Shown: piece by piece, positions 1 to 54,200 of the stretch
Position numbering within the stretch: position 1 is the first letter of the stretch
Layout of the letters: every line of letters begins with the position of its first letter
NCBI GenBank assembly: GCA_008632985.1
Contig: QPGO01000057.1
Coordinates: 310,001-374,000, forward strand
DNA length: 64,000 bases
Origin: Psammoneis japonica
Lineage: Eukaryota
Direction of reading: 5' to 3'
Notes under the pieces: model-generated
The model's input: only the letters and a program-made list of their open reading frames with translations
Database searches by the model: none
Told to the model about the DNA's origin: nothing
Translations under genes and position numbers: made by a program

Positions 1-604
1 CTCCCCGTGCCTTGATGTGGGTTGACAGTGCATTGCTGCAGCCCCTGACTCTGTGATTTGTGGTGCAGTTGTGCTGTGCCACAGAGTTCATTTTCCATGA
101 TTTTTGAATTGCCGCTTTGTTTTTTTTTCATGAGCACGTCCATTGCTGTTGGTTGTTGCATCCTCCACAAAGTTTCAGGGTTGCCACAACCAGCGAAATG
201 CCAACAATCCACATGCACCGGCTTTGGGGGGCAGCCGAACCCTTTTGACAGAGATTTTGGGTCTACAACATTGAATGGCACCCCCTTCCTTGGAGGCACC
301 ACTCTCAGTCTTGCTGGGGAGCAAACCCTCATGGCTCTCTGAGGCTGTCTTGATGTTCAGAGGTGGGGGGGCAGCCACAGGCATCCCAGGCCATGTGAAC
401 AACTTTGCAGAAAGACGTCACCTGGGCACAGCTGCAGCTGGCAACCCAGGCAGTTGCTCAAAATGTTCAGAGACAAGAGCAACCTTGTCTGCCATTTGTG
501 GCTGGACTTTTTGAAAAGTGGTGGACAGCAGATGCAAAAAACAAATGAACACTCTTCACCCTTGGACCACTCCACATGGCATTCAAGTTGAGCCGGCTGG
601 TGAG

Positions 605-845
605 GCATTGGCATCTGCTTGAGCTGCCCAGCAAGGTGTTGGCATCCACAAGGTGTTGGCATCTGCTTGAGCTGCCCAGCAAGGTGTTGGCATCCACTTG
701 TTGAGCCACCTTGCATGCCGCAGCATCTGCTTGAGCTGCCCCATTTGAAGTGGCATCACAACTCAAGCTGCCGCATGACATGGCATCAACTTGAGCCACC
801 CAAATGACATGGTGTCAACTTGAACTGCCCCGCATGACATGGCAT
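605..845 (+). repeat. Short tandem repeats (48-bp and ~30-bp units)
   Basis: tggcatctgcttgagctgcccagcaaggtgttggcatccac occurs twice (~609 and ~657), followed by diverged tggcatcaacttgagc-like units. Confidence 0.85.
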
Positions 846-1559
846 TTTCCTGCAGAGTCCATCCCAAAACAAGACCCGGCACAAATTAAGACCCGTCATG
901 GGTTGCAGCACAAAAAGTGTGCAGAATTTTCTTTTGGTCAAAAAATTCGAGAGGCATCGCGTTTGAAAGAGCGTGGCGAGAGCAGTTGATTGCTGCCCTT
1001 TTTACCCCCCAGAAAAATCTTGGCCCTTGCGTGGCGTGGTCTAATCTTCAGTGCTCAAATCACGTGCATTTCCACATGTGGGTCTTAAATCATGACCTCT
1101 GTGTCAGCCTCGGCTTGTCAGACATTTTGGTTCACATGCTGAAACTCATCAACCATTTAGATTTTCAAAAGTCAAGATTTTTTATGACAAGTTCAATGTG
1201 TTCTTTCACATTCAGGCGTGCAATTCCGAAATGCGCAAACATTGTGGCATCTGCATGGATGGAGATCTCAGGTGGGTCTTGATTTGTGATGAACTCTAGA
1301 AACATGGACAAAGATTAAAGGAAAACAAGATGTTGAGAAAACAAAAAATCACATTGAATCAACACAATCCATCAAATGCCGCAGAGTGATTCACCAACTG
1401 AGAATGTGAGATGAAATGACAGCACAATGATGGAAGCAGTTCTCATTCATTTTTGGACTTTGTCTCACCTCTCTTTTCACAGATGCACTCATCAGAGCAA
1501 AATGAATCATGCCATGCAATGGCGTTGTTGTGGGAAAAGTGTTTGGTGGCAAAATCTGG

Positions 1560-1860
1560 CAACGGTTGATGACACTGTCATGGTGGTTTTGGTGGTGGTT
1601 GGCGGTTGGGGGAGAGGGAAATCTGACCTGACCGGCTGTCGTGACATCACATGATGTGGTCCATCCGTGGTGTGCCAGAATCTGACATTGTGGTGGTGAC
1701 ATCATCAGTCACATGGGAACAGTGTGAAACATCATGATGTGCAGCACTGCATGAGCACACAGGGGGGAATCTGACCTTGCATTCTTGTGATGTTGCATGA
1801 CATTTCACCGCTGTGAGCCAGAATCTGATGTTGCGGCCATGACATCACAGCATGCATCAA
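1560..1860 (+). repeat. Diverged ~145-bp tandem repeat
   Basis: aatctgacc at ~1620 and ~1768; gccagaatctga at ~1674 and ~1818. Confidence 0.7.
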
Positions 1861-3619
1861 CACGGGGGAAGTTTCATTGAGGGTGTGCTCATTGAAATGT
1901 CTGGACAGGAACACAACAAAACGTTGCCGTCATTTAAAAAAATGTCTGGTGTGATGTTGCCAAGCAGAGGGACATCAACACAAGGGATTTTTTGGGGGAG
2001 AAGTCACTTGACATGGTGAACCCCTGACATGCAAACCCAACACAAGGGACTCCCTTGAGATCAAGTCCCTTGAAATGGAAAAAACACCCTCAAGCTTTGC
2101 AGTGTCCAGTGAAACCCATGTTTCCTGTGTGGCTTCTCATTTGCTGTCATTTTGTTTGCCACTGGCACCCTGATCTCAAGCCACAGGACACATTTTGCTG
2201 TCTCCATTTGTTGGTGCCCAAGGGTGACAAAGGCTGTTGCCACAGCTTCCCTCTTGTTGCACCTCCACAAACAATGACAAAAACAGTGTGGGAAGGGCTC
2301 AAGCGTTCACAGCACATGTGTGTGTCATGTTTGGCACAGTCAACTGAGGCAGAGAACAAATGCCAGGATGGCACAAAATGAAGCTTGCCATGCAAAGCAC
2401 CCTGACATGGGGGCATTGGGACATGCCTGCGAAACAAGCAAGTTGGCAATCAGAAAGATGTTGCCCACCAGCTTGGCCAGGGATGGCAACAGGTTTTGTT
2501 TGTGCAAGCAGGGCCAGAGTTGCTCAGCTTCTTTGTGGTCTGGAGTGCATTTTGTGCAGTGGGTGCAAAGGCAGGTGTGCACTCTTGTTGCAGCTGCAAG
2601 CACAATGATGTGACACCAAATGCATGCCGCCAGGCTGAGCAGTCTGGCTCAGTGTGCACCAAACTGCCCCAGGCCAGCTGCCAGCTCTGGGTGCTCTCAG
2701 CATGGTGGTGTTCACTTGTCCAAGCTGCACCACATTGGCTTGGAAAGGCTGCACTTGGGGTGGGCAAAGGAGAAAAGAAAACTTTTCAGCTCAGCTGCTT
2801 GCTTTGGAGTTTGCATTGTGAACAAGAAGCTCTTGAGAAAGAACAAGAAGTGGTGGGGTGCTGATGTCACCAGCATTTCTGGTCATGTCCTCTGCACACT
2901 CAACCACTCCTGGCAGGCACAATGTCACTCAGAGCTGCCTTGCTCTTTGAGCTAGAGCTTGTGCTGTTTGAGCTGGGCTGGTGTCATGGGCATTTGCACA
3001 ACCCTCATGGGCATTTGCACAACACACACAAAAAATGATGGTGAAACACTGTTGATTTTGCCGCCACACTTTCCTTTGTTTGGCACTTGGCTGTTGATGA
3101 CACAACAAGATGCCACTGACCCACTGTGTGCCACACAGCAGGCTGGTGGTGTTTTGGCACATTGGCAAAAGTGTGTGAAACCAACCAAGTGCCTTTGGTT
3201 GAGATGAGCAGACTCCCTGTCAAGAGATGCACATGGCAGAACAGATGCACAGGCCCACGCAGTGCCCCAGACCTGACATTTGTGCACAACACAGTCGACT
3301 GGGCCCAAGCAGCACAAAGAGATCAATGCAGGTGAAAATGAACCAGTTGCTCAGGACTTGAACCCACAGACACTTGGCTTCACTTTTTTGATGTTGCGCC
3401 AAGATGCCGTTGGCCTGCTGTGTGCACACATGGCAGGCCAGTGGCACCTCAGTGTAGTGTCGCCAGGTTTTCAGAGTCTGCTCACATTGCCAATTGCCAG
3501 GGCTGCTCCAAACATTCTGAAAAATGCCTCCTCTCCCACTGGCCAGGCCTGCCTGCACTGTTTCTGAATGTTTGAGCTCATCCCACATGTGGAACTTGCT
3601 GTCCTTTTGCACACCCAGT

Positions 3620-4290
3620 GCCCAAATTGATGAAAATGTTGCTGAGAGGAGAAGAGACAAGGCTGCCAAGATTGAGTGCCATGATCCATGATGCCCAAAA
3701 AGATGGCTCACCCCTCCTTCCTTCAAAATCTTTCTGTGCACCACCAAGCACTCAACTCAATGAAGATGTTTTTAGAGAGGAAAAGAGACAAGGCTGTCAA
3801 GACTCAATGCTGCAACAACACCCACTTTGGCATCATTGGTCTTCTTGCCACTCCAGAGATCTTGTGCACCCCAGACAATGCAAGTTCAGTTTGCATCTCT
3901 TTCAATTTTCATTTGAGATTTTTTGCACTGACACTTCCTTTCAACTTCATCCCCACAGCTGGAGCTTGTGAGGACTTTGCTGCAATGTTCCTTGAACATT
4001 TTTCCACACACTCAGCACTCAACTTGACAAAGATGTTGCTGAGAAGAGAAGAAGAGACAAGGCAGCCAAGACTGAGTGCAAGCATGAGACCCAAATGTGG
4101 CTTGTCCCTCCTCTTGCTCCATTTTGGTGTCCACAGTCTTCTTGCCTCTGAGCGAATCTTGTTTTGTGATGTTGCAATTGGCCCTTGCACCTCCAACAGT
4201 GCAAGAAGCCCATTTTGCATCTCTTTCAACTCTTGTTCAAGATTTGTTGCTGACAGCTCTTTCAGCCTCATTCTCACAATGCAGAAATGA
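3620..4290 (+). repeat. Diverged tandem repeat (three copies of a ~55-bp core within longer units)
   Basis: aagagacaaggc(t/a)g(c/t)caaga core in units beginning ~3627, ~3757 and ~4024; ttgcatctctttcaa at ~3891 and ~4216. Confidence 0.75.
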
Positions 4291-5014
4291 AGCCATTGGC
4301 ACTTTGCAACTTCTTTAAAAGATGCTGTCAAAAACAAAGAAAACATTTTTTGAGTGCTTTGGCCAGAGACCCATGAAGAAGACTGCTGGAATTGGCACAA
4401 CTTCTTCCATCTTCCAAGCCTGCTTCTGGCACCAAGCCATCTTCTTCTGGCACTTCTTTGACTTGTGCTGCAGCAGCATCTCTACTCACATCTCTCCAAG
4501 TCCACATTCAATGAATTGCAGCCATTTAAAAATGCAAAGACTGCACCTTGGGAAGGTTCTCCACAATCAATGCATGGGCTGTGTCTCAGCTGAAAATGGG
4601 CAGAGCATGCAATGCAGTGATTGCAACCACACCCAGTCTTTCTGGCCATCAAGAAAAGCTGTGGGTTGACAGATGCCAAGGCTGTCATTCTTGCTTCTGT
4701 TGTTTGTGGGACAGTGCATTCTGAAGTCATTCAAGCTGCACATGAGCAACACTTGGCTCAAGTTGAGTCAAGCAATGTGATGTGCTTCCAGAGGAACAGC
4801 AAAGTCTCTGTGTGATTCTCCATGTTGGAAAGCAAAGAGACCTGCCTCATCTGCATGTGCACCTGGAAAGTGCTGCTTTTGCCAAACAACAGTTGCTCAA
4901 ACACTCTGAGAGACCATTGGTCACCCAGCCAGATGTCAGACATGCAAAAAGCAGAAAAAGCAGGCTGCTGATTTCATCAACATCTGTTCCAGAGTTGTTG
5001 CAACTCTGCAGTTG

Positions 5015-5976
5015 GCACTGGTCCTCTCCAACAGCCTCCGTGGTTGCATTGCACAGTTCCTTGTTAAACAAACAAATTGCTGCACTGGGTGGTGCAAACA
5101 ACCACTTGGTGGCTTTGCCAAACTGTGAGGTGGAGGGAGCTGCATCAGACATTGTTGTGTGCTTTATGGGCTGTGCCGGTCAACACTGCATGGCAGCCTT
5201 GGTTCTTTTGTTGGTTGGCTGGCAGCCCAAATTGCTTGACACTGTTGCACTGGCTGAAAGCTGTGGAGATGCAACCTGGCACTGGTCCAGGGTGCACGGG
5301 AGTGGCCATTGATGAAGAAGCATCTCATCAAAAAACAATGTCGCACATTGAATCCATGGAAGAGGTTGGAGCCAAGCTGTTGTTGGACGGGCAAGGCTGG
5401 GGCACTGATGTCAAAGGTAGCATCTGGGTGGGTCCTGCCATTTTGCCACATTCAAATGAAAAAGACAAGACAATGTGCAAAGAAGTTTTTGGCCATGTGT
5501 GTCTGTCTGTTTGCAACGCATTCACGTGGGAAGAAGTGATTAAGATTAAGAAATTAAAACTCGTTTGGAAATGCAGCATCCATCTGCACAACCAACGGTG
5601 GCAAAATGCGGAATGGTTCACATCGAAATCCCGCGCTTCCATGCTTGTGGTGTCAACATTGGAATTCCAGTTCCTGGGTGTGCAACGCGGTGTGTGGTCC
5701 TGGACTGATTCTCGAAGCTTCCATCGAATGGCACCTGACTTTCCGCGTATCAACTCACGCTGCTTTTTCTCTTCTTACAGGGGGGCGTTCAGTTTTGGTG
5801 GGTTGTACGGGACAAAGTCAAAGTTTGGTGACACAGACATCGCAGGAGATGGCGCGCTTCAATTCTTCACGAGTCGTATCAAGGTGACGAGTCAGTGGCC
5901 AATTGAAAGGCCTGCTGCCGCTCTTGATCATAATGAAGCGGGTACAGATCATGCTAATTTCGCCGGAACCTTGTGG
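5015..5976 (+). pseudogene. ALDH6A1: Methylmalonate-semialdehyde dehydrogenase (ALDH6 family) pseudogene, 3' half
   Basis: Across shifting frames: ALGGANNHLVALP, GCAGQHCMA (GQRCMA catalytic motif), EVFGHV, NAASICTTNGG, VNIGIPVP, then an intron ~5678-5780, then FSFGGLYGTKSKFGDTDIAGDGALQFFT. Several frameshifts; 5' half unrecognisable. Confidence 0.85.
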
Positions 5977-6087
5977 GCCTTCCGCCAGTCCGAGAAGCTC
6001 AGGCTGTGTAGCTACACCGAAAAGTTGCTATCTAATCTAGTCATATCTAGAAGCATGCTTCCGAGTGTACCTTAACGAGAAAATCAT

Positions 6088-7215
6088 TCAATCGGCTGCT
6101 GGTTTTGAGACATTCACCGAGTCAATATTGTTTTCGTTGAATACCTCTTTGCCTTTATCAAGATACACCCACTTTGCGTTAGGCATATTTTCTCTGATCT
6201 GACTCGCAAATCTGCTCCTTGCGTAAACAAATGTATCGCAGCTTTGAACCAAGTGCATCGTAGCAAGAATGACAACTACTTCGTACTTGGGGTCATCAGA
6301 TGGGATTTGTGCTTCCCATCCGCCCTCGGCCCCCCTGTAACGGGGCCGATCCATGTACATCCAGTTTAACTGCGGAAACTCCTCCTCGGCCTCTTCGATT
6401 GCGTTCTGGTCGTCTGTGAGAAGAAAGATGTTCTTGGTGATATTTTCTCCTACAGCGTCAACATACTCTTTCACGGTGTGATACTTGCGACGCTTTCCTT
6501 TGTGTAGCACTACATCAGTTCGTCGCACGTGCATAACAGTGCATGGCTTCACGAGCTTCGTAGATTTCGAGAGTTTGTAGACCTCTCTTCTCAACCATGT
6601 CTGAGGCCTCGTTGCGTACTCATTCAGCCATCGACCCATTCGAGAGTGAATCGTTGCATCACCTATTGGTTTCAGCGTCTCAATATTATCGGGGTCGGCT
6701 TTGCACGACGTGAGATTCAAAAAGTAGCACGACATGTCCTTTCGAGGACAAACAGGGATACTTCCATCCTTTTTCGCTGCATAGTGCCATCGCCCCAGCC
6801 TCGGATGAACAGCTATGGGATGGTGATTTTCGTATCCAAATAAGAGGCCAATATTCACTAGAAGAAAGTCAGCGCCCCAGCCCGCCGACGTCATTTCAAT
6901 TGTCTTTGCGTTCGAGCAATTTCCATTGAATTGTGTGTCGTACAACTGACGAAAAAATGCTGCCTTCCTTCTGTCACCCATTGGCTTGAAACACTGATGC
7001 GTTTCGTTTTCTTTCACCACATGAAAGTCAGGGTGGTGTGTCCAAAATTCATCCGCATTCACCTTCCATTCAAAGCAAGTCTTCTTCTTCCCTTTGTCGA
7101 TTACTTGTTCCTCCCTGATCGAGAATACACTTGACCAATCGCTGTATAGCACTATCGCTGATAGTACAAAAATGATCAGCCAAAGAGAGGTAAATTTGTG
7201 ACTTAGCCACATCAT
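6088..7215 (-). CDS. Alpha-1,6-fucosyltransferase-like (GT23/FUT8-like) type II membrane glycosyltransferase
   Basis: 375-aa ORF with N-terminal TM helix, HVRRTD and IFLLTDD motifs. Confidence 0.75.
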   Translation of the reverse strand: MMWLSHKFTSLWLIIFVLSAIVLYSDWSSVFSIREEQVIDKGKKKTCFEWKVNADEFWTHHPDFHVVKENETHQCFKPMGDRRKAAFFRQLYDTQFNGNCSNAKTIEMTSAGWGADFLLVNIGLLFGYENHHPIAVHPRLGRWHYAAKKDGSIPVCPRKDMSCYFLNLTSCKADPDNIETLKPIGDATIHSRMGRWLNEYATRPQTWLRREVYKLSKSTKLVKPCTVMHVRRTDVVLHKGKRRKYHTVKEYVDAVGENITKNIFLLTDDQNAIEEAEEEFPQLNWMYMDRPRYRGAEGGWEAQIPSDDPKYEVVVILATMHLVQSCDTFVYARSRFASQIRENMPNAKWVYLDKGKEVFNENNIDSVNVSKPAAD

Positions 7216-7609
7216 GCCAAGCAGTAGTCGTTCCTATTTCCACCCGTGGTTTTGTGTCATCTGGACGGTGTTTTGTGTGCTTTCGGGGGAAAAAATGAGC
7301 GAAGATTAGCGCATCTTATGTACCGTACATGATTTTGATAGATAATTTTAATTCATATCGTAATTTACGTATACATAATTTAAAGGTATTAGTTCACAGA
7401 CAGTCATACTACTTTTCTGTATGAATACAGTGTACTGAACACTCACCGCTCACATTTTGTTCGAAAGTCGATTGCCCCACAACAGCATAATAGGGCTATG
7501 TTAAAATACATCGCTACTAGCTGCCAGAACTAGTTGACAACCCTCACGAGAGTATTTGGACTGATAAAGAGATGAGTTGTGTCAGTGAAAAAATTCACAG
7601 ATTGTCTGA

Positions 7610-8302
7610 TGTGGTGGAGTAATTCTCCATTGTTTGTTGTGTGCTGTACGGAGCGTTGAACGGATCAGTTTCAACGGCTCAACGGAGAAACAATTGAGTT
7701 GTCAACCCCCATTCAAATTACAGTCGAATTTCAAGGGGCTGCTCTCGCATCTACCGGTACCTTCATCTTGGGCCTCTTTCATGTTGTTTGTCACCCTTCA
7801 ATCTCAATTGTTGCAACTCATCATGTGTGCGGAGCTCTCACTGCCACAATCTCTATGGCAAACAAGGGGAAGACTGCTTGGTGGAAGAGTTGTCAGAAAG
7901 AGATGCCTTTCGCTTTTGTATTGAGCGTTGCAGGCGGCTCAATACTGTGGCAGACTCGAAAACAAACAGGCCTTATGGGCCTCTTGGGCTGAGTCGTTTG
8001 CCTTCGAACATTCGATTGAGAGGCAACATCACCTAGATGCTTCCGAACTTGTCAATAGCGATCCCAAACTGAGACGAGAATGCAGATTAATTGCTATGGA
8101 GGTTGAAAAATGCATGCAAAGCAAATACAGCCAGCATGGTACACAGCTGCTGGAGGAGAGAACGCTTCGAGAGATGGACGACGACAACACACCAGGACCA
8201 CAAACCTTGCACGACAAAGACATTATTCCTGTGCTTTACTGTGTTAATCATGATCACTATGCTCTGGATCGTCACTGTCGCTCACGCAATGCGTCCATCT
8301 AA
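7610..8302 (+). pseudogene. Possible disrupted small Cys-containing protein gene
   Basis: Protein-like text split over frames (HCHNLYGKQGEDCLVEELSE / KRCLSLLY* / QAAQYCG...ASWAESFAF...ECRLIAMEVEKCM). It abuts block B. Confidence 0.3.
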
Positions 8303-10930
8303 AATTTTGCAGGACCATTGGCACTTTGGCTTGCTGCACTTCGTCTTTGCCATCAGAGAATTCTCCAGATTTTAGTGTTCTTTCTGCACAGTCTTTTCCC
8401 GGTGGCAACAGACAATCCCATTTCCCATTTTCGCCATGACAGACGCAGGTCCATCCTTGGAATGAACATTGGGAAAGCTGCTACCTCTGCTGTTGCAATG
8501 AATTAGCTCCAATCATCAAGCTCAACTGGGCTCAAGAGAAAAAGTGTTCAATCTCCTGACTTGAACCCTGTGCTGAGTGGGACTCTGAAAAATGTCCATG
8601 GCAAAGGTGGAAATGTCAAGCCATCAATGAAGTGAGTTCAAGCAGATGGGAAAGGCATGTCATTGGAAGACACCAAAGAGTTGCTCCACATTTGCTGTGA
8701 ACTTGGCACTGGCCTTTTTGACCTTGGGACTGCCCCAATCTGTCGAGGATGTGGATGAGTTGATTCCTGGTTTCACACTTTTGGGAGTACATTTTAGTGC
8801 AGCGCCTCTTGCCATGGCATCCCAAAAAAATTAATTGTGTTGATTCTTCACTTGCCATTGAAAGCAACAATTGAAAAGACTGCAGCATCAGAGCCATCTT
8901 TGAATTTGTCAAAAAGCCAGTTGTTCTGTCTGTGATTTGTCCCTTGACATTTGCTCTGCACGACACCCACCAACAGCAGCCCTGTGCCCCCTGTTGGGGC
9001 TTTCTTGAGCCGCAAAATGTCAACCAGCTGGCAGAGCTTCAGAAACAGCTGCAAACTGGGAAGCTGAAATGTCATCCTCCACTCTTCTTGCCACTGCCAA
9101 GAGGACTCTTGTTGACTGCATTGCACCCAATGGAATGTGCGTGCTGTTGACAAGACATGCACATGATCAAAACCCTGAAAAGGGCAATTTGTCCATGGAT
9201 GCCAATGACAGAAATGGTTCTCTGGGCACTGCCAAGAACAGCAGCACTCATGGCAGTTGCTTCTGGAGATGGCAACCTCAATGTCTTGGACAATGCTGGC
9301 TGTGTGTCAATGTGGCACATCAACCCAGGCGGGAGTCTCTCCAGCCAGCTGCTGGCTGAAGAATCTTGTGTGAAATTTGCGCTGAAAGAGTCTGTCAATC
9401 CATGTGTCAGGGGGTTTTGGTGAACACTGGATGACTTGTCGTCCATTGGGTGCGTGAAATGCACTGGCAAAATCCCCAAATGCACTCATGAGCAGACTTT
9501 TTTTCAGCCAGCAGCTGGCTGGAAACTTCCCCAAAACCAGCACTGCCAAAATGCATGGACCACATCAATTGCTTTTCTCTTGTCACTTGCTGTCATTTGT
9601 GCTGAAAGAATCACACACAGAGAGCCTCATTGTTCAAGCCAAACAAGGTCCAGAGCTGGGACCCATTTGATTGTCAGGGTCAGCTTTGCCAGACAAGGTG
9701 GGCTCAGCACAAGATGCAATTGTTGTCATGCCTGTGAAATGGCACATGGCATCAAATGTGTGTGCCTTTGCCATTGCAAATGTCATCACTGAATGTGTCA
9801 TGGATGACAGCCCACAGTTTTTTTAAAATCCAAGCCGTCTCATGTCCTGGTGGTGGCTTTGCTTGTTGCTTCTGTTTTGCCAATCATTTCCTGATCACCG
9901 CAAGGCATTCAAACGCCATTTCACAAGCGATTGAAAGTCATCAAGTGGCGCGCATGAAAAAACTGTTGAAGTTGGCCATGGTGTGACTTGCTTCTCTCTG
10001 TGACAGCAATGTGGAGGATCACAACTTGGTTGCCTTGCCATCCAAATTGCCCTCAGTTGCTTTTTTGTCCCAGTGTCATTGTCGTCGGGTTCCAGCAGTG
10101 AGGGACCTGCGAGGTGATCATGGGACATTCCTTTGCATCATGCACTCGCCAAATTTCTGTGAGCTGGCACTCCCATCTTGCAGACATGCATTGGAGACCA
10201 GGCATCATTTCCAATTCATGTCCCTGACAGCATGTGAAGTGACAAGGAACTCTCAGTTGCTGCGGTGAAGGTGTTTTCTGAAGTCTTGCTCAAGGAAGCT
10301 GGCACCTGAGCTCTCTTTGGATGACAAAGACTCACTGTTGTCTTTGCCACAAATCTGCAACATGTGCAGACTTTGTTTGTTGGGTCATGAACATCATTTT
10401 TGAAGCAGTTTGTTTTCCGGCAAGCAAGTTTGCACCAACAAAGACTTGATGACAGCTTTGAACAGAAAGCGCTGGCCTCACCTGTGTCCGCGCGTCCTTC
10501 CAAGATAATGCTAAAGTCAATCAAGCTGCGTGTGAACAACACTTAAGGCGCTTTGGGTTGAGTAATGTCACACGCTTCCAGAGGAGTGGCAGAGTCCCAC
10601 AGTAAATGTCCATGTTGAACAGCAAGGAGATTGCTTGCCTGTGCGTGCGCCTGAGAGGGGCTGCTTTCGCTGAGCGACCACTTGATGAACCCATGAGTCC
10701 GTTGGTGACCCGAATAGACATTAGACATGTAGAAATAGGCTGCAGACTTCATCCACATCTATTCCAGAGTTATTTTATCTGTATATATATACGATCGGCA
10801 TTGATTTTGGGTGTGCAACAGCATTGTCCGTGCAGCCTTCAGCGCGCAGTCTGAGCCGGTGGTCGAAATGCTTGCTTGCACGCGGTCGCTTCATGCCAAT
10901 CAACGCAGAGAGCCTTTGCAACTTGGAACT
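8300..10930. mobile_element. Block B: degenerate TpA/CpG-depleted DNA
   Basis: Only a handful of TA in 8500-10500, mostly tttaaa/ttaat/ttag. Spurious Tyr-free ORFs in all frames. Confidence 0.7.
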
Positions 10931-16789: not shown

Positions 16790-19700
16790 TGACCCTCACA
16801 TGCACCTCATCTTATTTTGTGACAACAAACAATCGAAGGCGGGAACCATTGAGTCTACACGGTTCCGGCAATCATGTCTTGTGTTTTTCACCCTGCAAGG
16901 AAAGAGTGCTTGTTGAACACAGCAGTCATCATCAACTGTGTAGCGGGTGCTCTTTTTCTTCCTTGGATCTCGGGGTGGCACTGCCAGCAGGTGGCCTTGC
17001 CTCTCTGTTTCCAGTGCATGGGGCAGCACGCTGTGAGGACACAAAAACAAGAACACATCCAATCATCACCACAGCAATGTCCAACATGATGACAAGTTGG
17101 AGAAAGGGGTGCTTGGCACTTGTGCCCCACAACAGACTTTTCTGTGGTCTCTGAGCTCTTGGACCATGCCAGAAAAGAAGTGAAAAGCAATTGATGCCAA
17201 ATCAGAAGACACTCTGGGAGCCACCCAACAAAAGCTTTTGCATGCTTGCTGACTTGTTTGCCAGTTGGGCTGATGGATGTGTGTGTGCTCCATGCAAGAT
17301 TCTCTTCAAACACAGTGTGGCTGATGTGGCGTGCCATTTTCTTGGAGGGCATGAAAAGCTTGGCCACAAATGTTGGAGCATCGGGGTGCAAGGCAGTTTT
17401 GGGAGGACAGACAGACAACATTGCAGCAAAAGATTGCTGACTGTTGTGGATGATGTCAAGAGTGATGCCCACTTTTTGGCTTCTGCACCAGGGCGGCACT
17501 GTGATGCATTGGCAACAACAAGGTGACAGCGCTGGACATGTGTTTGCAACCCATGTGGCGAGCTCTTTGGAGTTGATGAGACTGATGCAGATTGGTTGTT
17601 GAGCTATGATGTTCCAACACAGAAGCCAAAAAGGCCAGCTGGAAAGTCAAGAGGAATCCAAGGAAGAGCTGGAGCTCCTTGAGAGAAATCCAAGACTTGG
17701 TTGATGCAAGCAATCATGGCATTCAAGCTTGCTGAACCAACAAGAGTCATTGCACATTTCATTGCTCCAGCCAAAGGAGTGTCTGGTGAAGAAACAGTCT
17801 CTGGAGGGCCTTGCCATGAGCAGCTGCAAGGGTCCCTGCTGAAAGAGGGCACAGCAAGGTTGTGTCAGGCCAAGAGAAACATCAGCGTGGGCAAAGACAC
17901 AACTGAGCATGGAAGTCTAAAAGACTTGAAGGAGTGGGTGCACAATGCCATTGTCAAGTTGGGTTGACTGGCAGATGGATGCACAGAAACCATGAGAAAA
18001 AGAACTGAGTGCATTGGAAGAATGCTCAGGCCAGAGATGCAAGCTCTGGTGTCTCTGAGGCAATGGAGCAGTTCAATCCAAAGGAGCCAGAGCATTCATT
18101 GGGAGCAACCACATTGGAGAAAGACAAGGCAGTCTGGGAGAAATGATGCAATCACTGCATGGAACAGGGCTGATCTTCAGGCTGCAGAAGGTGAAGGCAT
18201 TCCACTCATTTGTGGGATTGTGCATGAAAGCTGCACATGACAAGATTGAACGAACAAACAAGCTTGCAAAAGTCACAAAGGAGTGGGGCACAGCGGTGCT
18301 GCTGGGAATTCTCAAGTTGATCTTGTTCAGTGCAAATGAGAGACTCCACTTGCATGTTCGGGCTGTCAAGGCATGGAGGCAGTTGGTGCTCATTCATCAA
18401 GAAGATGAAGGAGAGGTGCTTCAAGATTGCTGTGATTGGTTTGCAAGGGCTGTTGGGATGGCAGAAGGATCCCACTGCTGCAGGATTGTCCTGGAAGAAA
18501 TTGCCAAGAAAGAAATTGGGTTCAGTGCAGACACTGAAGATGCCCAGGAGAAAGGAGAAAGAGAGGAACAAGCTGTGAGCTGTTTTGCCAACAGAAGAAG
18601 GTGTGCACCAACAGAAATGTTGGCATGCCTTTTAAAAAACCTGTGCTGACAGTTTACACTGGGGGTGGACACCGCAGCTGTGTGGACATGTGCAGGACCA
18701 GCAAAAACCCTGAGGGTGAAAGTTTTGCACAACAAGAGAAGAAGGAACAAACCAAATGCTCTGGAAATGTGACAAGGTTGAGCATGCAAAGAAGGAACAT
18801 CGTTTGCTCAACAATGATGATGACCACTCAATGGCAGAGTTTGAGGATGTGATCTGTGGGTCCAATCAAAGCTGTCAGTGTGTTGTTGGATGGCACAGCA
18901 TTCAACCACAGTGTGGTGGTTGAGGTCAGTCAATTGATGGCTTTTCAGAAGTCAGAAGGAGTGCGGCATTGGAACATCAGGGTGCAAGGCAGTTTTGGGA
19001 GGACAGACAGACAGACAATGTTGCAGTGAAAGATTGCTGACCATTGTGAATGACATTGAGAGTTTGTGTGTGTAGACTCTCCATGAACACACAGGTTTTG
19101 TGCTCACTCAAGGGGCAACAGTGCCGCTCAGATGTGTGTTTGCAACCCACGCAATGAGCTTTGGAATTGGCAAAACTTCTTTGGGTTGGCTGGCAAGCCA
19201 TGACATTCCAACAACAAAAGACTTGTGTTGCTTCTCTCCCACTGCCACGTCATTGTCAAGACTGCCGATGATGCACTTTGCTCCTTTTTGACCACAGCAC
19301 TGCAGCTGTGCTGCTGACACTGGCCAAGGTGCAAGAACAAAGCTGCCGTTGCTCCTTGCATGCAACCATGCAACAGCATGAGCAAACAAGTGCGATTTGC
19401 AGAAAAGCTGGCGTGGGTTCAGGCTTGCAAGCCAACGAAGCTTTCCCCACCCAGCCCACTTGCTTGGCTGCACCTCGATGCCCTTGGAGCAGCAGTTGCC
19501 AGAAGTTCACAAAAAAGACTCATGGGAAAGGATTTCAATGCCCCCCAAACGAGCATGCCGGTGCATGGAAACATGGGGCTGCATCAATTTGCTGCCAGAG
19601 GGAAATGTGCTGCCTCCCTTGCACACCTGGTCTGCCGATCACACAGGGGCCCACAAAAGTGACACAGGCCAGCAGGTGGTGGTGGCTTGCACGCTGGCGC

Positions 19701-19800
19701 TTGTTCCCAACAGCAGACCTGCAAATGACCGTGAGAAGAGATTCCCAACCTCCTTGGTGTTTGCTTTTGACCTCTTGTTAAGCAATGATGTTGCCATCGT
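16790..19800. mobile_element. Block C: degenerate TpA/CpG-depleted DNA with an internal direct repeat
   Basis: About six TA sites in 16900-19780; direct repeat 17371-17463 / 18967-19063. Confidence 0.7.
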
Positions 19801-25039: not shown

Positions 25040-26600
25040 TATCAGGGCCAAAAAGAACCTTCCATTGAACATTGTCAACCACAACAAAAAAGAGATCATG
25101 AGGCCCCAGCTTGCTTTTGGTGTCATCACAAGCTTTTTTGATGAGTCGACTCTGCTTGTTGTCTCCGAGCAGTGCTTCAAGACAATGCCACACAAAAAGG
25201 TGAGCATAGCATGTCACACACACCTGCCTTTGAATGACATTCCTGCAAAAATGTTGGCACTTGACCTGCTGCTCCTGCTTCCACTTGTGGGTTGTGAGTT
25301 CTTTGGATGAAATCGGGTGCCAAACATGGAGCCAAAAGGTGTGACTGCAAAGAAGCATCTCTTTCCAAGTTTGCAGTGCATTGCAGTCAAGGTTCCTGTT
25401 ACAAGGAAAAACTGGATTTGGTGGCTCTGGGCTCTCATTGTCTTCAACATTCTTGGTTGATGACGCTTTGACAACCACTTCATGAAAGGCCTGAAACAGC
25501 TTCTGAAACTCAAGACAAACTGACAAATCAATGTTGTCTTTGCCAATGGGAGTCTGCATCAAAGCAATCTCTTCATGTCTCACTCTCTTGTTGTCACAGT
25601 GCTTGCTTAAACTCAAAACCCCCAAAAATGTCAAGCGCAAAAACCACCATCCCCAGACAGTTTGCAAAAACGTGGCAGTGTCCTTTCTGAATCAAGATGT
25701 TGCTGTTGTTTCCATGCTGACAGATTAAAACTTGGACCTTTTGCTGGTTTGCATTGCACACTGGTGAAGCCAGCATCATGCTGCACAAACTCCATGCCTT
25801 CACAACAATAACAAAACAAACTGATCAGCAAATCTTGCGAAATGCATTCTTGGCCACCTTTTCGACAAGTCACCCGCAGTGGCACAAAACACACTGCCGA
25901 CCAGTTTTGTGGACCAACTTGCCTTTGGAGCAGTCAAATCTTCATGGAATGACAGTCAAAGTAATTCCCACAAACCACATGACAATGACAGCGAACATGG
26001 GGATTGCAGTGGTGTTGGTGGCTGCTCCAAGGATGACCAAGATGGGGGCACAGGACCAGGCCATTGGGTCAGTGCTGGGAAGGGAGCAACAACACTCAGG
26101 GTGACAAGCAGTGATCAAACGGCCAGCATGGATCTGCCAGCCACAATGCTGGCAGTTCCTATTAAGCAATGTCTTTAGCAGAGGTCTTGAGCCTCTTTGC
26201 ACTGCAAGTCAATCACGATGTTGCCAATGAGCTTGACTTGCTGGACGTTGTTGATGAAGAAGAGCAGCGTGCATTTGTGCGGTCCTTTGCTGCCAAACAC
26301 ATCATCCCTTGCAAAACAGGCTGTGAATGCGAGCATGACACCTGGCCACCTTCCACTGCAATTCATCAATGAAAATGGGCCACTCGCAGTCATTTGTTTT
26401 TTTGTGTTGCATGCACCATGGGGGCACGATGTGAAAAACACATTCGTCAAGCAAAGAAAGCAAAACAACGGATCCCCTTGACGAAGCGGCAGCAACAACA
26501 ATGAATCCCTCTCTGGTCGATGAAGCAATGTTTTTGTGGGTTGGCACACCGTCTTTGCCAGCATCCAACAATCCTTGTGGACACCCCTCTGCTCTCTATT
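25040..26600. mobile_element. Block D: degenerate TpA-depleted DNA (relic of a large ORF on the minus strand)
   Basis: No TA in 26178-26596. Minus-strand protein-like text (LGPHDLFFVVVDNVQWKVL) continues into less mutated DNA at 24604-25000. Confidence 0.65.
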
Positions 26601-41944: not shown

Positions 41945-44166
41945 TTTTCACTCCATTCCTGTTGCAGATGGCCAACCTTGACCTGCTGAAGATCATCTGG
42001 GTGGAAGAAAAAGTGGATGGGTCTCTCTTGTCTTCCTGCCTGAACACCGCTGCTGCTGGCGATCAGCAACTTTGGCTCAAATCACATCAAAGCTTGGGCT
42101 TGTTGGGTTCGCACCAAGCCAACGACTCCAGCAAGTGGTCAAAGCAACAGCTGGAGCTCTGCAAAGAACTCTTGCAACTTGCTCTGATCATCAGCTGCAC
42201 CTTCAATCTCAAGTGGGTCTTGCCCCCCAAAGCAAGCAGTGCTTGCCCACAACAAACTGTCGCCAGCATGGCGCTGAGCACGCACAGCAATCAAGATGGG
42301 AGAAGCATCTGGACCTTTGTGAGCTCAATGCAGACAAATGTCCTCATGTTGTGGAGGCTTGGGTTCCTCAACTGGCTGGATGAACAGAGCACTTGTGCCC
42401 AATGAATCATCAAGGGCTGTGTCCCTTGTTGTCTTGCTGGACACAAGACAGCATGCCAAGCTCAAGAGATGGGCTGGCATTGCACAACACAAAACAGCTG
42501 CACATCACCCACCTGAATGAGGCACTGGATGAAAAAAAATGTGGACTTTCCCATGGCACACCTTGCTGAATTGAGGCAATGGAAGAAGCAACCTCTCGCC
42601 TGTGAGCTCTGTTGCTTTTGGGTCAGGGCAATTGGGCTGGGTTTGTTGTTGCAGCAGAGGGTGCTTCAAAGCTGAAGAGAGAGGCTGTGCACGATTGGCA
42701 AAAACCTTTTGCCAGAGAGACTGCATCTCAGTGCCTTTGTTGCAACACAAGAACATTTGAAGGGTGCAGCATTCATTGGTTTTTGCGCTTTCCTGAAAAA
42801 GAGCAGTGACCGAACAGATGTCAAAATTTTTGGGGGGAGAAACTGCGAGACTGAGAAATGACAAACACAAAAGATGCATCTCTCCACACACAGGCACATG
42901 AAAAAGACACCCAACTGTGAGAAACTCAGCCTGGTCTCCTCACTCAAGTCAAATCTGAAAGAGTTTGAATGTCTCCACACAACCATTTGGATCAAAATGT
43001 CCCTCATTCTTGTGTCAAAAAATTTCTCATGCATCAAAATGCTGCAACCTCCCACTTTGATGGCACCAGCCTCTTTTGGATGGTTGTCTCCATTGTGTGT
43101 CTGGACTTTTTTGGGAGACACAGCAAGAAGAAGGCTTGTTGCACCCCTGTGCATCAGACATGGGGGCAATTTGACTGGGGCTCGCTGGAATCATGTGGCA
43201 TGGACAACACCTGAAGAATTTTCCATGCAGGTTCAACCTGCACTGGCATTTGGGCCCTGGCACATTTAAATTGGGTCAGCTGCACTCCACACTGGCCTGC
43301 CAAAATGTCCATGCAGCCATGCCTTTCTTTCCCTCACTGCACACCACACAAACAATTTGGGCGTGCTCCCATTTTCACAGCCAGCTTTTGTTTCATTCTT
43401 TCAATGTGAGATTTTGATTCTTGGCTCCCCTCTCGTTTGTCCAGCGGCTCACTTCATTGTTCACTCATGGACAATCATCACCCACTCATCAACCCAGAAT
43501 TGTTTGGAGACCACATTCCATTGCACTCCTCTGCACCCTTGCTTGTCCTCCTCTTGTGCATCTCCTTTGCACCTCTTGAGGCCTTGTTTGTGCCAACCTT
43601 GGTTCTTTTTTGCCTTCTGTCCTTTCCCAATGCTGCTCTTTTTTGTGGAAATGAGTCTCTGTTCCTTCAGCTCTTCCTTGGATTTCCTGCACATTTGCAC
43701 CCACTTGCCCCAGCTGTTCTCCAATGCCAACAGACCAAATGCCAACTTGTTTGAGCAACATGTCGATTGGAGCCAATGATTCCACAGCTTCTTTCTGACA
43801 ATGACGGGCAGGAAGTGGCAGTTGCAGCAGTTGTGCACCTCTGTGTTGTCATCCCTTCCATCCAGCATGTCCTCCAAAGATGGCGTGTTTTCCTTGTTGC
43901 AACCCAGCCTGTGCCTGTTTGTCTGCGATGCAAAACAAATCAACACGGGTGAGTGTTTGTTGTCAGAGCTCTGTTCATTTTTGTCCTTGCAGTGGTGCTC
44001 ACACAAGAACTCATCCTTGTGTTCTCCATGGGTGTTGTTTCTCTTTCTTGTCACTTGTCTTTTTGCCAGGTGCAATTCTGCGCAAGCGCCAGCAGGATTG
44101 TCCCGTGTGAGAGTGTGGTGGCACGCCAACACCTCCTCGGGCACTTTGGGACGTCAGGCAGTTGCG
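41945..44166. mobile_element. Block E: degenerate TpA/CpG-depleted DNA
   Basis: A single TA (tttaaa, 43267) in about 2.3 kb. Confidence 0.75.
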
Positions 44167-51429: not shown

Positions 51430-54200
51430 GTGCTGAAAATCATGGTTGGGAACAACAATGTGATTGAAACAAAAGATCTGGCCACAATTTGTTCCACCTT
51501 AATGGCAATGCACTCCCTTTCCCTGGAGGATGATCTGTGGCCCCTTCCTTGTCTTTGCAAGCGCGACTCTTTCCTTTCACCAACCAACTTCTCCAGATGT
51601 TGGATTTTTGGAAGAAAAGTCAGAGTTGGGCATTTTGTCCCCTGTGGCCACATCGGCAGTGATGCCAACATGCCAATGATCACTTGCTTGGAGCTCCTTG
51701 ACATGTGCTGCATGTGCACCAAAGTTTGGATGCCTTTCATGGAGTGGAAGTGGCGGTCAAAGTTGAGAGGGGCTTTGCAGCTGCAATGGCACCCTTGACT
51801 TTTCTGATGAAAGATGAAAGGAAAGGGAGCATGACTCCACTGCAGGAATGAATGTTCCATCAGTTTGATGTGCGAAGTGACCCCAGCAGATCCATGTTCA
51901 TTTTCAAGGCATGACCCTGCCTTGTCTTTCATTTCATGGGAGCCTTTTGCCAAGGCAAGCATGCCCAGTTTTGTTGTCAAACTCGCTGATGGCACAGTCC
52001 ATTCAAGTGAAAAGGTGGATCCTGTTTCAAAACAAATTGGCACTGCCCATGATGGATTGTGAGAGTTGAAATCTTTTTGCACCCTTGCCTTCCACCAGAT
52101 CCCCACCTCCAAGTGACAAGACACAACTCAGAAGAAGCAGCAAAGAAACAAGGGGTTGCTGTGCTTCACCTTGTCAAACACATTGGCTGGTCAGCAGAAA
52201 CAAATTGAGTTGCACTTTTGTGCTCATGATTTTTGCTCATGAACTGATTGTGCAACTTGTTGAATTTCAAATGATTTGTTTGCCAGATCATGGCTCAGCT
52301 GCACCAACTCTTCACTTGCCAGAAAGCAGCTGTTCACTGGGGCTTTAAAGAAGAGAGCAACTCCAGAGGGATTTCCAGGTGTGGTTGGTCCTCATTGCCT
52401 TTTGCTGGTGTGCCGCAGATGACATGTTTTTTGCACCAACAATGTGTGCCAACCTTTGCAGAGGTCCAGCAAGGCTGTGTGTTCTGCTCAAAAAGAGGAG
52501 TGTTGCCCATCAAAAGCAACCTGACAGAGGACTGCTCACAACCATTCAGAAATTGTGAGATCTCCTCACAATGCAAACACATGGGATGCCACTGCCTTTT
52601 TCCCTCTCTGTTGCAATGCATTGGTTGCATGTGTCAAGCACTTTGCATTTGCCTCTGTGAAGAATGCAACATGTGCTTTCCACTCAAACCTGCAGAGACT
52701 CATGAAAAGTGCCATTTCTGACATCCTGTGACATTGTGTTGATGTGATCCTCCTGACCAAAACCTGTCAATGCACAATGTAGATTTGATCACACACATGC
52801 AAGAACTTGCACAATGAACCCAGCTCAAACAAGACTTGATGTCCTTCCCCATACATTGCTTTCCTCTGCCTGTGCTTGAACTTGACCCAGCCATGCTTGG
52901 CTCTTGCCAACTCTCTTGCTGGCTTGCACCCACCAGCATGCCAAGTTTGCACTCTTCCACAAAGGGCAAACAGCCCTCACAGAGTTGCTGCATTTGACTC
53001 TTGAGAATGGCACCTGTGCATGCCAGAGAACATTTGGTGCAAGTCATTCTGCTCAAAAGGCCAGCTGGGCAGCTGGACAAGCTGTGCTGCAACCCACTGT
53101 CTGAAACAAATGCTGCTGGGCATGCATGGCTCTCTCCCATCCTCAGCAACTTTCTGCTTTGCAATTTTTTTCTCGTTGCCTTCTGATTTTCAATGATGGC
53201 TGAAGTTGGTCTCGTTGCTCTTGTTTTTCCCAGCACCTTGCTTCAACCACCACCTGCCCAGGTTTGCCAACTTTGTTTTGAAATGTTGTGAACATTGTTT
53301 TCTTCACTGGGCTCACATTGTCTGCAGGAAGCTAAAACGTGCTGTGTTGCACACAAAAACAATCTGGTTTTCTCTCCTCATGCAATGGAGAGCACACTTG
53401 CCCTTCTTTGAGAATGAAGAAAAAGAAAGGCCTTGCCAAGACCCAACATGCTGAGAATGGATGGCTGTCATGCTGCGGTGCCATTGCTCTCAGGAAGTTT
53501 GGCCTCTGGAAGCAACAACACCTGCCATTTCAACAAAAACACCCATGATGTGCAGTCAGCAATGCTTCAAATCTTACCTTGCCAAAGCCCTTGCAGCCTG
53601 CTGCAAGTGCTTGTGACAGCTGACAAGCAGTCTCTTGTTTTCACCTTCCATGGAGCCAGGCTCTGCACATGAATGATGTCATAAAAAGGTGCTTTTGAGT
53701 TCCTGGCTCTCATCACATTCCCACAAAGGCAGCTGCACTGACGCACCTCTCAAAATGACAAAGATTGCTCAACAAAGTCTCAGCCCACAGCAAGAGGGAT
53801 GTGGGGACTCCAGCTGCATTTCCTGCCCACGGAGCAAACAGGCATGTGTCTCTGTGAACACACAGCAAAAAAGTTCTTGAAGGGGGGCCCCTCGCAGCAC
53901 TGGACTGTGACACAAAAGTTTTGCTTTGTCATGCGCTGCATGTTGCAAGCATGCATTTCTGCTTGTGACTTTGGCAGCATCATGTGTCATTTTGTGGTTC
54001 AATTTTTGGGCCATCCACTCAACAACTTTTTGACTTTTTTGCAGCACCACTCTCAAATGTCTTGAGAGCAGTGCAGGGTAGGTGGATTTTTGAAAATGTT
54101 GAGTGTTGAGAGGCACAATTGCACCACAAATTGGTTGTCGAACTGAACTCTAATTCTGCTGAGAAGGCATGATGACACAACCCTAACCTACAGTGCCATG
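51430..54200. mobile_element. Block F: degenerate TpA/CpG-depleted DNA
   Basis: About ten TA in 2.7 kb; very CA/TG-rich; Tyr-poor ORFs in all frames. Confidence 0.7.

Follow-up and report, generated by a model that had tools for sequence, protein, structure and literature searches.

Flank-dependent loss of TA steps from transposon-bearing blocks in the diatom Psammoneis japonica

The window analysed here is a stretch of 64,000 nucleotides from contig QPGO01000057.1 of the diatom Psammoneis japonica (assembly GCA_008632985.1, positions 310,001 to 374,000, forward strand; the whole assembly has 91.4 Mb). Gene-rich stretches, with CDC20, RecG and an AAA ATPase among the genes of these unedited flanks, alternate in it with six blocks totalling 17 kb, in which TA and CG are low, TG and CA are high and GC content is unchanged. 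We report that TA steps in these blocks and their relatives have become TG or CA on both strands, after insertion of the affected elements, at a rate set by the neighbouring bases; such changes are called editing below. A TA step is classed by its flanks as YTAR, RTAY or half-context (YTAY or RTAR), Y being a pyrimidine and R a purine. The blocks, whose borders come from a two-state hidden Markov model and which carry no strand, are the following.

Block A, 1..5517: 19 TA and 52 CG; extends about 1.8 kb to the left of the window.
Block B, 8302..10486: 7 TA (5 YTAR, 1 half-context, 1 RTAY).
Block C, 16868..19779: 6 TA (2 YTAR, 4 half-context).
Block D, 25044..26593: 9 TA (4 YTAR, 5 half-context).
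Block E, 41946..44124: 1 TA, in TTTAAA at 43267.
Block F, 51432..54137: 8 TA (3 YTAR, 4 half-context, 1 RTAY).

An earlier note on this DNA had counted about 19 TA steps in block A between 260 and 5420, about 12 of them YTAR, 7 half-context and none RTAY. The recount gives exactly these figures, and the sole TA of block E lies in TTTAAA as had been stated. The YTAR steps comprise seven TTAA, two TTAG, two CTAG and one CTAA, the half-context ones five YTAY and two RTAR. Against the 12 YTAR steps seen, 6.1 are expected from a first-order Markov model (binomial p = 0.0055) and 4.6 from the flank classes of the block's own TG/CA steps (p = 0.0004). Pooling the six window blocks gave 27 YTAR, 21 half-context and 2 RTAY among 50 TA, while blocks across 244 kb of this contig, a span that takes in the window, gave 133, 68 and 4 among 205. 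On other contigs, 26 block segments (58 kb) gave 140, 103 and 8 among 251 TA; they were found as relatives of the repeat in block A and, being partly kin by descent, are not fully independent. The skew is opposite in the window flanks, where YTAR is the rarest class (329 YTAR, 976 half-context and 611 RTAY among 1916 TA). Block-to-flank ratios are 0.67 for TTAA, 0.09 for CTAG, 0.004 for GTAT and 0 for ATAT, and they overstate the resistance of TTAA because the flank baseline is itself TTAA-poor. The claimed dependence of NTAN depletion on the flanking bases nevertheless stands after the tetramer ratios and the composition nulls. The loss is also, as had been argued, no general GC drift, since AA/TT, at a ratio of 1.12, is not depleted and blocks and flanks share a GC content of about 0.48.

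Comparison of transposon copies shows what changes and how fast. A copia family provided 27 copies, ranging from >99% to 81% identity to one real, nearly unedited reference copy. Copy L112 has lost 27/50 RTAY, 27/68 half-context and 1/16 YTAR sites, with 7/1319 other A>G changes; L114 has lost 37/50, 31/67 and 2/16, and L115 47/50, 48/68 and 5/16. In L118 the loss reaches 45/45, 48/49 and 9/9. The predicted order of depletion, RTAY before half-context before YTAR, is thus visible between copies at each stage (L112, L114 and L115). Elsewhere in L115, 4/158 CG and 6/1299 other A have changed and transversions are 0; a copy, some 3,100 bases long, shows 0–4 transversions while RTAY loss reaches 47/50. 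Two further families with an unedited copy give the same result. In five partly edited families lacking one the YTAR direction is the same, and RTAY and half-context sites are unrankable as most of them are gone.

In 12 partly edited copies, whose pooled counts reuse 134 TA sites, A>G was found at 432/2767 TA, 21/5205 AA, 19/5200 CA and 13/5444 GA, or at 53/15,849 adenines outside TA. A 5′ T is therefore required in a near-obligatory sense, raising the rate about 40-fold above that of other adenines. By 3′ base the changes are TAC 199/879, TAT 164/856, TAG 39/415 and TAA 30/617. Among the rare A>G outside TA, too, a 3′ pyrimidine is favoured (T 29/4100, C 13/3180, A 9/4539, G 2/4030), which might stem from off-target activity or from constraint on codons. 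A YAC motif, with A>G at CAC too, appeared as 15/96 in a loose count with redundant alignments and as two CAC>CGC in the public run X1 (see below); it was rejected, CA being at background (19/5200) once copies were compared with a secure reference. TA goes to TG and to CA equally, with 400 TG and 382 CA, 198 and 162, and 83 and 88 in the three families, so that both strands are hit, and the hits build up one by one after insertion. Strand-coordinated runs were found in none of 17 copies (smallest p 0.094); many short independent openings of the DNA would also yield none.

The earlier note had proposed TAY as the target. TAY is indeed preferred, with a Y/R rate ratio of 3.8 (bootstrap 3.0–4.7, from only 26 replicates), but it is not required: TAR is slower and not immune, as the loss of 9/9 YTAR sites in L118 demonstrates. 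Half-context sites, which offer TAY on one strand only, provide a test that by its design is free of composition and new-TA effects. There the TAY strand was changed rather than the other in ratios of 287:98, 114:41 and 69:20 in the three families, about 3:1; scoring each site by its majority gives 54:5 (5 ties), 48:8 (10 ties) and 69:20. This preference holds at each codon position, and where a change on the other strand would leave the amino acid unaltered the ratio is still 106:43. At codon position 3 the changes lean towards synonymous ones (RTAY giving CA 99, TG 56), perhaps because some sites of older copies are mis-polarised.

In a hazard model over 537 sites of the three families, each 5′ purine or 3′ pyrimidine raises the loss rate 2.08-fold (site bootstrap 1.85–2.67) at distance 1 and 2.06-fold (1.81–2.67) at distance 2. 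No clear effect lies further out, as the intervals include 1 at distances 3, 4 and 6 and nearly so at 5. Strand choice follows another pattern, with a factor of 2.6 (2.1–3.1) at +1 and 0.91 (0.75–1.12) at +2, and strengths of 3.4 for TAC, 2.2 for TAT, 1.1 for TAG and 1 for TAA. The footprint is six bases, RRTAYY being fastest and YYTARR slowest, and its outer pair acts alike on both strands. Correspondingly, survivors per 1000 TG/CA steps in the contig blocks fall through 59, 28, 7.9, 1.9 and 0 as favourable flank bases rise from 0 to 4 (51, 102, 44, 8 and 0 sites). The symmetric outer-base effect suggests that the duplex, through its opening or shape, would be read before one adenine is attacked; a linear single-strand motif fits only if the –2 and +2 preferences happen to match. 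An anticodon-like +2 preference for TACG was looked for and not seen (TACA 7/274, TACC 9/286, TACG 8/198, TACT 7/223).

That the change takes place on chromosomal DNA is evident from a host gene at the right edge of block A, where a broken aldehyde dehydrogenase duplicate can be compared with its sister copy in unedited DNA 10.7 kb upstream.

5020..5520, + strand: edited 5′ part of the broken aldehyde dehydrogenase duplicate; 17/18 sister TA now TG/CA; TTAA at 5065 kept.
5520..5800, + strand: edge zone of the duplicate; 7/11 sister TA now TG/CA; 10/12 CG kept.
5800..7311, no strand: unedited rest of the duplicated segment, an internal control; 45/67 sister TA kept, 10 TG/CA.

Editing is restricted to the end that touches block A, which argues for a regional process acting on chromosomal DNA in place and not guided by homology. 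Two of the three TA survivors in the duplicate are newly arisen TA, both half-context and not YTAR. Within the block part, 19/28 sister CG are now TG or CA, and TA loss extends about 250 bp beyond CG loss at the edge (5520–5800). Just outside the block (5540–5560) two TTAA of the duplicate are gains, the sister copy having TTGA at both places.

The remainder of block A has a composite anatomy, again without strand.

260..852: left part of a high-copy non-coding repeat; 1 TA; 73 genome matches; joins 1299–2000 in other copies.
853..1298: MITE-like (miniature inverted-repeat transposable element) insertion of 446 bp; 24-nt inverted ends (88%), TA target duplication; 7/19 survivors.
1299..2000: right part of the high-copy repeat; 2 TA, both TTAA.
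2001..5019: low-copy degraded sequence of 3019 bp with 6 TA; origin unassigned, open stretches without a Pfam match.

Contig depth over 260..852 is 240–900 against about 60. The MITE-like insertion splits the repeat, and seven of the 19 survivors lie inside these younger 446 bp, so survival reflects age too. The left copy of its target duplication (GTAG) is now CA while the right one (CTAG, a YTAR site) is still TA; seven empty sites in other repeat copies show TA in two, CA in four and TG in one. A short, very high-copy element lies at 9338–9500 inside block B (contig depth >4,000 in the bin). When 119 open stretches from all six blocks were scanned against Pfam, two Aldedh matches, one weak match below cut-off and no transposon domain came up.

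Public reads were searched for the same DNA. In run X1, 0.78 of the words sampled from 1–8000 are present, and two X1 contigs span 2249–6241 with 14 differing letters and 5 gaps; for 260–2248 the run carries many related copies, which leaves no clean comparison there. The presence of block A from 2249 to 5517 shows that it is no private assembly artefact, X1 being possibly the source sample and so not independent biology. Of nine TA in 2249–5520 checked in X1, the five YTAR are unsubstituted and two of the four half-context ones are CA, a hint only of ongoing change. Hardly any of the stretch is present in runs X2 and X3.

Near-saturated editing covers about one quarter of the contig studied, in transposons and adjoining host DNA; the blocks lie over repeats and copia elements and spill into a host pseudogene. 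In the L077 copia family editing halts at one place (reference ~2100–3300) in L111, L112, L114 and L116, shortly past the reverse transcriptase motif and ahead of the 3′ long terminal repeat, whereas individual changes differ by copy; this common halt point hints that the domain has an edge fixed in place and spreads in a given direction. In copy L110 editing halts near position 900. CG loss comes later than TA loss, and surviving CG in the blocks on contig C58 is context-biased (GCGC at 0.52 of the flank level, TCGA at 0.11), with CGA lost most. The genome's set of 27 PF00145 matches is unusually large and holds several near full-length C5 methyltransferase genes, with a cluster on contig C297.

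The catalytic YVDD is among the edited sites. In two multi-copy copia families the motif could be located in 16 copies (loci L091, L094–L096, L177–L179, L181, L182, L185–L189, L193 and L194), every one of which has HVDD instead of YVDD. Within each family identity is ~93–97%; those loci that were translated have open frames of >1,300 aa, and tyrosine makes up 0.4–0.8% in the three copies examined for it. Spread of these families may have continued once their TA had been erased. The copia-associated loci L190, L180 and L183 are unlike all others, with CG observed/expected of ~1.7, and TA of 1.05 in L190. Among 80 related copia loci from metagenomes no erasure was seen (whole-locus TA observed/expected 0.37–0.90, lowest 1-kb value 0.29), and YTAR exceeded RTAY in 3/80; that search is biased against edited copies because it needed intact peptides. 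L212 and L216, copia loci from one microbial-mat assembly, have TA of 0.45–0.49, intact CG and YTAR above RTAY, and possibly represent a partly edited relative.

The only published case of TA hypermutation that we found is that of Bigelowiella natans, where de novo TpA>TpG/CpA hypermutation strikes silent integrated viral DNA and ADAT2 has been proposed (Mettrop et al., bioRxiv 10.64898/2026.01.13.699255). Its de novo rate is raised ~1000-fold per generation and is on in some lines only (10.64898/2026.01.13.699255). The likeness is close: the same change on both strands of silent or foreign DNA, leaving TA-poor, TG/CA-rich clusters, with an adenine deaminase proposed there and not shown. The traits found here likewise are A:T>G:C confined to TpA, on both strands, in mobile or foreign DNA regions. 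The differences are the lineage, the involvement here of transposons with adjoining host DNA, and the flank preference measured here; the main text of that preprint treats neither flank context nor diatoms nor CpG, and its Table S2 and Fig. 2B may bear on context (10.64898/2026.01.13.699255). No diatom report was found besides the preprint, in a search that left subscription journals largely uncovered.

Repeat-induced point mutation (RIP) of ascomycetes is likewise repeat-linked and dinucleotide-specific, and makes two-strand transitions that spill into neighbours; it creates TA from CA. The repeat association, the two-strand transitions and the spill are shared. The direction is opposite, as TA is erased here and the C>T polarity of RIP is not found. 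Moreover, RIP mutates both duplicates along their homology, whereas here one copy was edited at one end only; the unedited sister copy and the confinement to the block-adjoining part argue against homology pairing as the trigger.

We lean, at somewhat better than even confidence, towards enzymatic adenine deamination in silent domains of chromosomal DNA by a host enzyme. Such an enzyme would turn A:T into G:C at 5′-TA-3′ steps of chromosomal DNA, within bounded domains that would form over transposons and leak a few hundred bases into neighbours. Adenine would be deaminated to hypoxanthine and then fixed as G at replication, presumably by a zinc enzyme of the TadA/ADAT2 kind or an analogue. 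Silent chromatin probably guides the targeting, as suggested by domains that are bounded by repeats, by CG loss that follows later and by the 27 PF00145 matches. The near-absolute 5′ T, the pure transitions and the 3′ pyrimidine preference fit TadA-type enzymes; the natural TadA target is UAC, and TAC is likewise the top context here. TadA-derived base editors work best at TAY, and the ABE7.10 and ABE8e domains resemble the present activity in making A>G in DNA with TAY best (PMC10879117). These editors differ in being engineered, single-strand dependent and active in any context, whereas the activity here is natural, nearly TA-only and symmetric in its outer-base effect. Amphioxus ADAT2/ADAT3 is a natural eukaryotic tRNA deaminase that acts on A in DNA; it differs in choosing GAA for A, in acting also on C in TCG, and in that no domain-wide genomic scar is described in the available part of the report (PMC10354150).

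A genome search found an ADAT2-like locus (L033) and a TadA-like locus (L030) with HxE and PCxxC motifs, universal genes that carry little weight. The ADAT2-like gene has N within its VFFGCRNDRFGG motif, which would be the residue stressed by Mettrop et al. Two separate loci match PF02137, the ADAT1/ADAR type (G000:C40:112674-113392 and C79:344558-345390), and one of them may be a second, non-ADAT1 enzyme. A search for a DddA-like family gave 0 matches and was uninformative, its control giving none either. A fuller reading, which we offer tentatively and think rather doubtful as a whole, is a natural adenine deaminase on double-stranded chromosomal DNA, the counterpart for adenine of DddA. It would need a 5′ T, sense a six-base RRTAYY duplex and be recruited to silent chromatin, and under its pressure some retrotransposon families would have come to survive with tyrosine-poor proteins and an HVDD reverse transcriptase motif.

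Several points weigh against host adenine deamination. The matches to PF00383 (nine) and PF14437 (five) we take, by the look of their motifs, to be housekeeping deaminases, and no extra copy or chromatin fusion was seen among them, SAM/tudor and Rossmann fusions not being searched for. TadA requires single-stranded DNA, yet no strand runs were seen. Copies of one family share sites and ancestry, so the pooled counts are not independent. Whether A or T was changed is unreadable from the sequence, and of the enzyme-like specificity claimed in the earlier note, the context and copy data support the specificity, while the chemistry stays conjectural, as A>G in TAY equals T>C in RTA. Stramenopile deaminase fusions with SAM/tudor or Rossmann domains have been named (Iyer et al. 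2011, PMC3239186). The one ADAT2 tested on DNA, that of amphioxus, prefers GAA for A and TCG for C, not TAY (PMC10354150), and evolved TadA accepts adenines whatever their context (PMC10085711), which stands against the near-obligatory 5′ T.

That ambiguity of polarity is the opening for an altered thymine, in which T in RTA would be oxidised (to 5-hydroxymethyl- or 5-formyluracil) or aminated and then template as, or become, C; TAY>TGY and RTA>RCA are one event, and the symmetric outer-base effect suits any duplex-reading enzyme. We regard it as quite unlikely: TET/JBP searches gave 0 genome matches (a weak negative, the control being found only below cut-off), the TAC-first strand order fits a known adenine enzyme, and we know of no such mutagenic DNA pathway. 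The symmetric six-base preference, together with the sharp, repeatable domain edges, would be explained by a duplex-reading writer, a methyltransferase or other, that marks adenine at TA in silent domains before the marked base is deaminated or miscopied. This is improbable in our judgement, and N6-methyladenine is not, to our knowledge, a cause of A>G at such rates. Error-prone repair, in which heavy cytosine methylation of silent domains would lead to G:T mismatches and a Y-family polymerase (eta/iota-like), filling in the repair patch, would misinsert G opposite T at TA, is unlikely. In its favour, the genome has six PF00817 and 27 PF00145 matches, CG is depleted in the same blocks and polymerase eta yields TA>TG in repair patches (PMC7884765). 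The eta hotspot, however, is WA, which includes AA (PMC7884765), whereas in this genome AA stays at background level (21/5205, TA 432/2767) and transversions are almost absent. TA loss also runs far ahead of CG loss (in L115, RTAY 47/50 against CG 4/158) and ~250 bp further at the edge, an objection softened in that repaired C deaminations would be traceless.

The remaining two explanations we give hardly any credence. ADAR-like editing of element transcripts followed by reverse transcription could draw on the two PF02137 loci and on the 5′ U favoured by ADARs (Mettrop et al., 10.64898/2026.01.13.699255). Such editing should place all changes of a copy on one strand and affect retroelements only. 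However, both strands are equally hit, interleaved inside single copies, and in-place editing is seen in a MITE of DNA type, in the target-site duplication of this element and in the duplicate of a host gene; this two-strand pattern in non-retroelement DNA largely refutes RNA editing. Composition, new TA favouring YTAR, selection or assembly error, with no flank-reading mutator at all, could be suspected from 19 sites of which seven lie in one younger insertion, from the two newly arisen TA among three survivors in the gene duplicate and from the position-3 synonymous lean. The composition nulls fail, though, and copy fates show the order directly; the two new TA are half-context, the TAY strand wins 106:43 even against a synonymous alternative, the catalytic YVDD is edited, and the X1 contigs match 2249–6241 with 14 differing letters. 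The copy comparisons thus refute a mutator-free account for the genome studied.

TpA hypermutation itself was already published, and the TA dinucleotide is the level at which its sole published case found, B. natans, is defined; what is new here is a further lineage and a measured six-base motif. This preference and the strand ranking TAC > TAT > TAG, TAA make an assay by which candidate enzymes can be judged; two candidates, polymerase eta and RNA editing, already look unfavourable. The mutation table of B. natans can be tested for the same flank rule, which bears on common origin or convergence. Should the enzyme work on double-stranded DNA, nature would offer its own version of an activity for which base-editor engineers had to resort to evolution. 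For the genome of P. japonica, repeat ages and annotations are distorted, as the mutator quickly adds several per cent of divergence.

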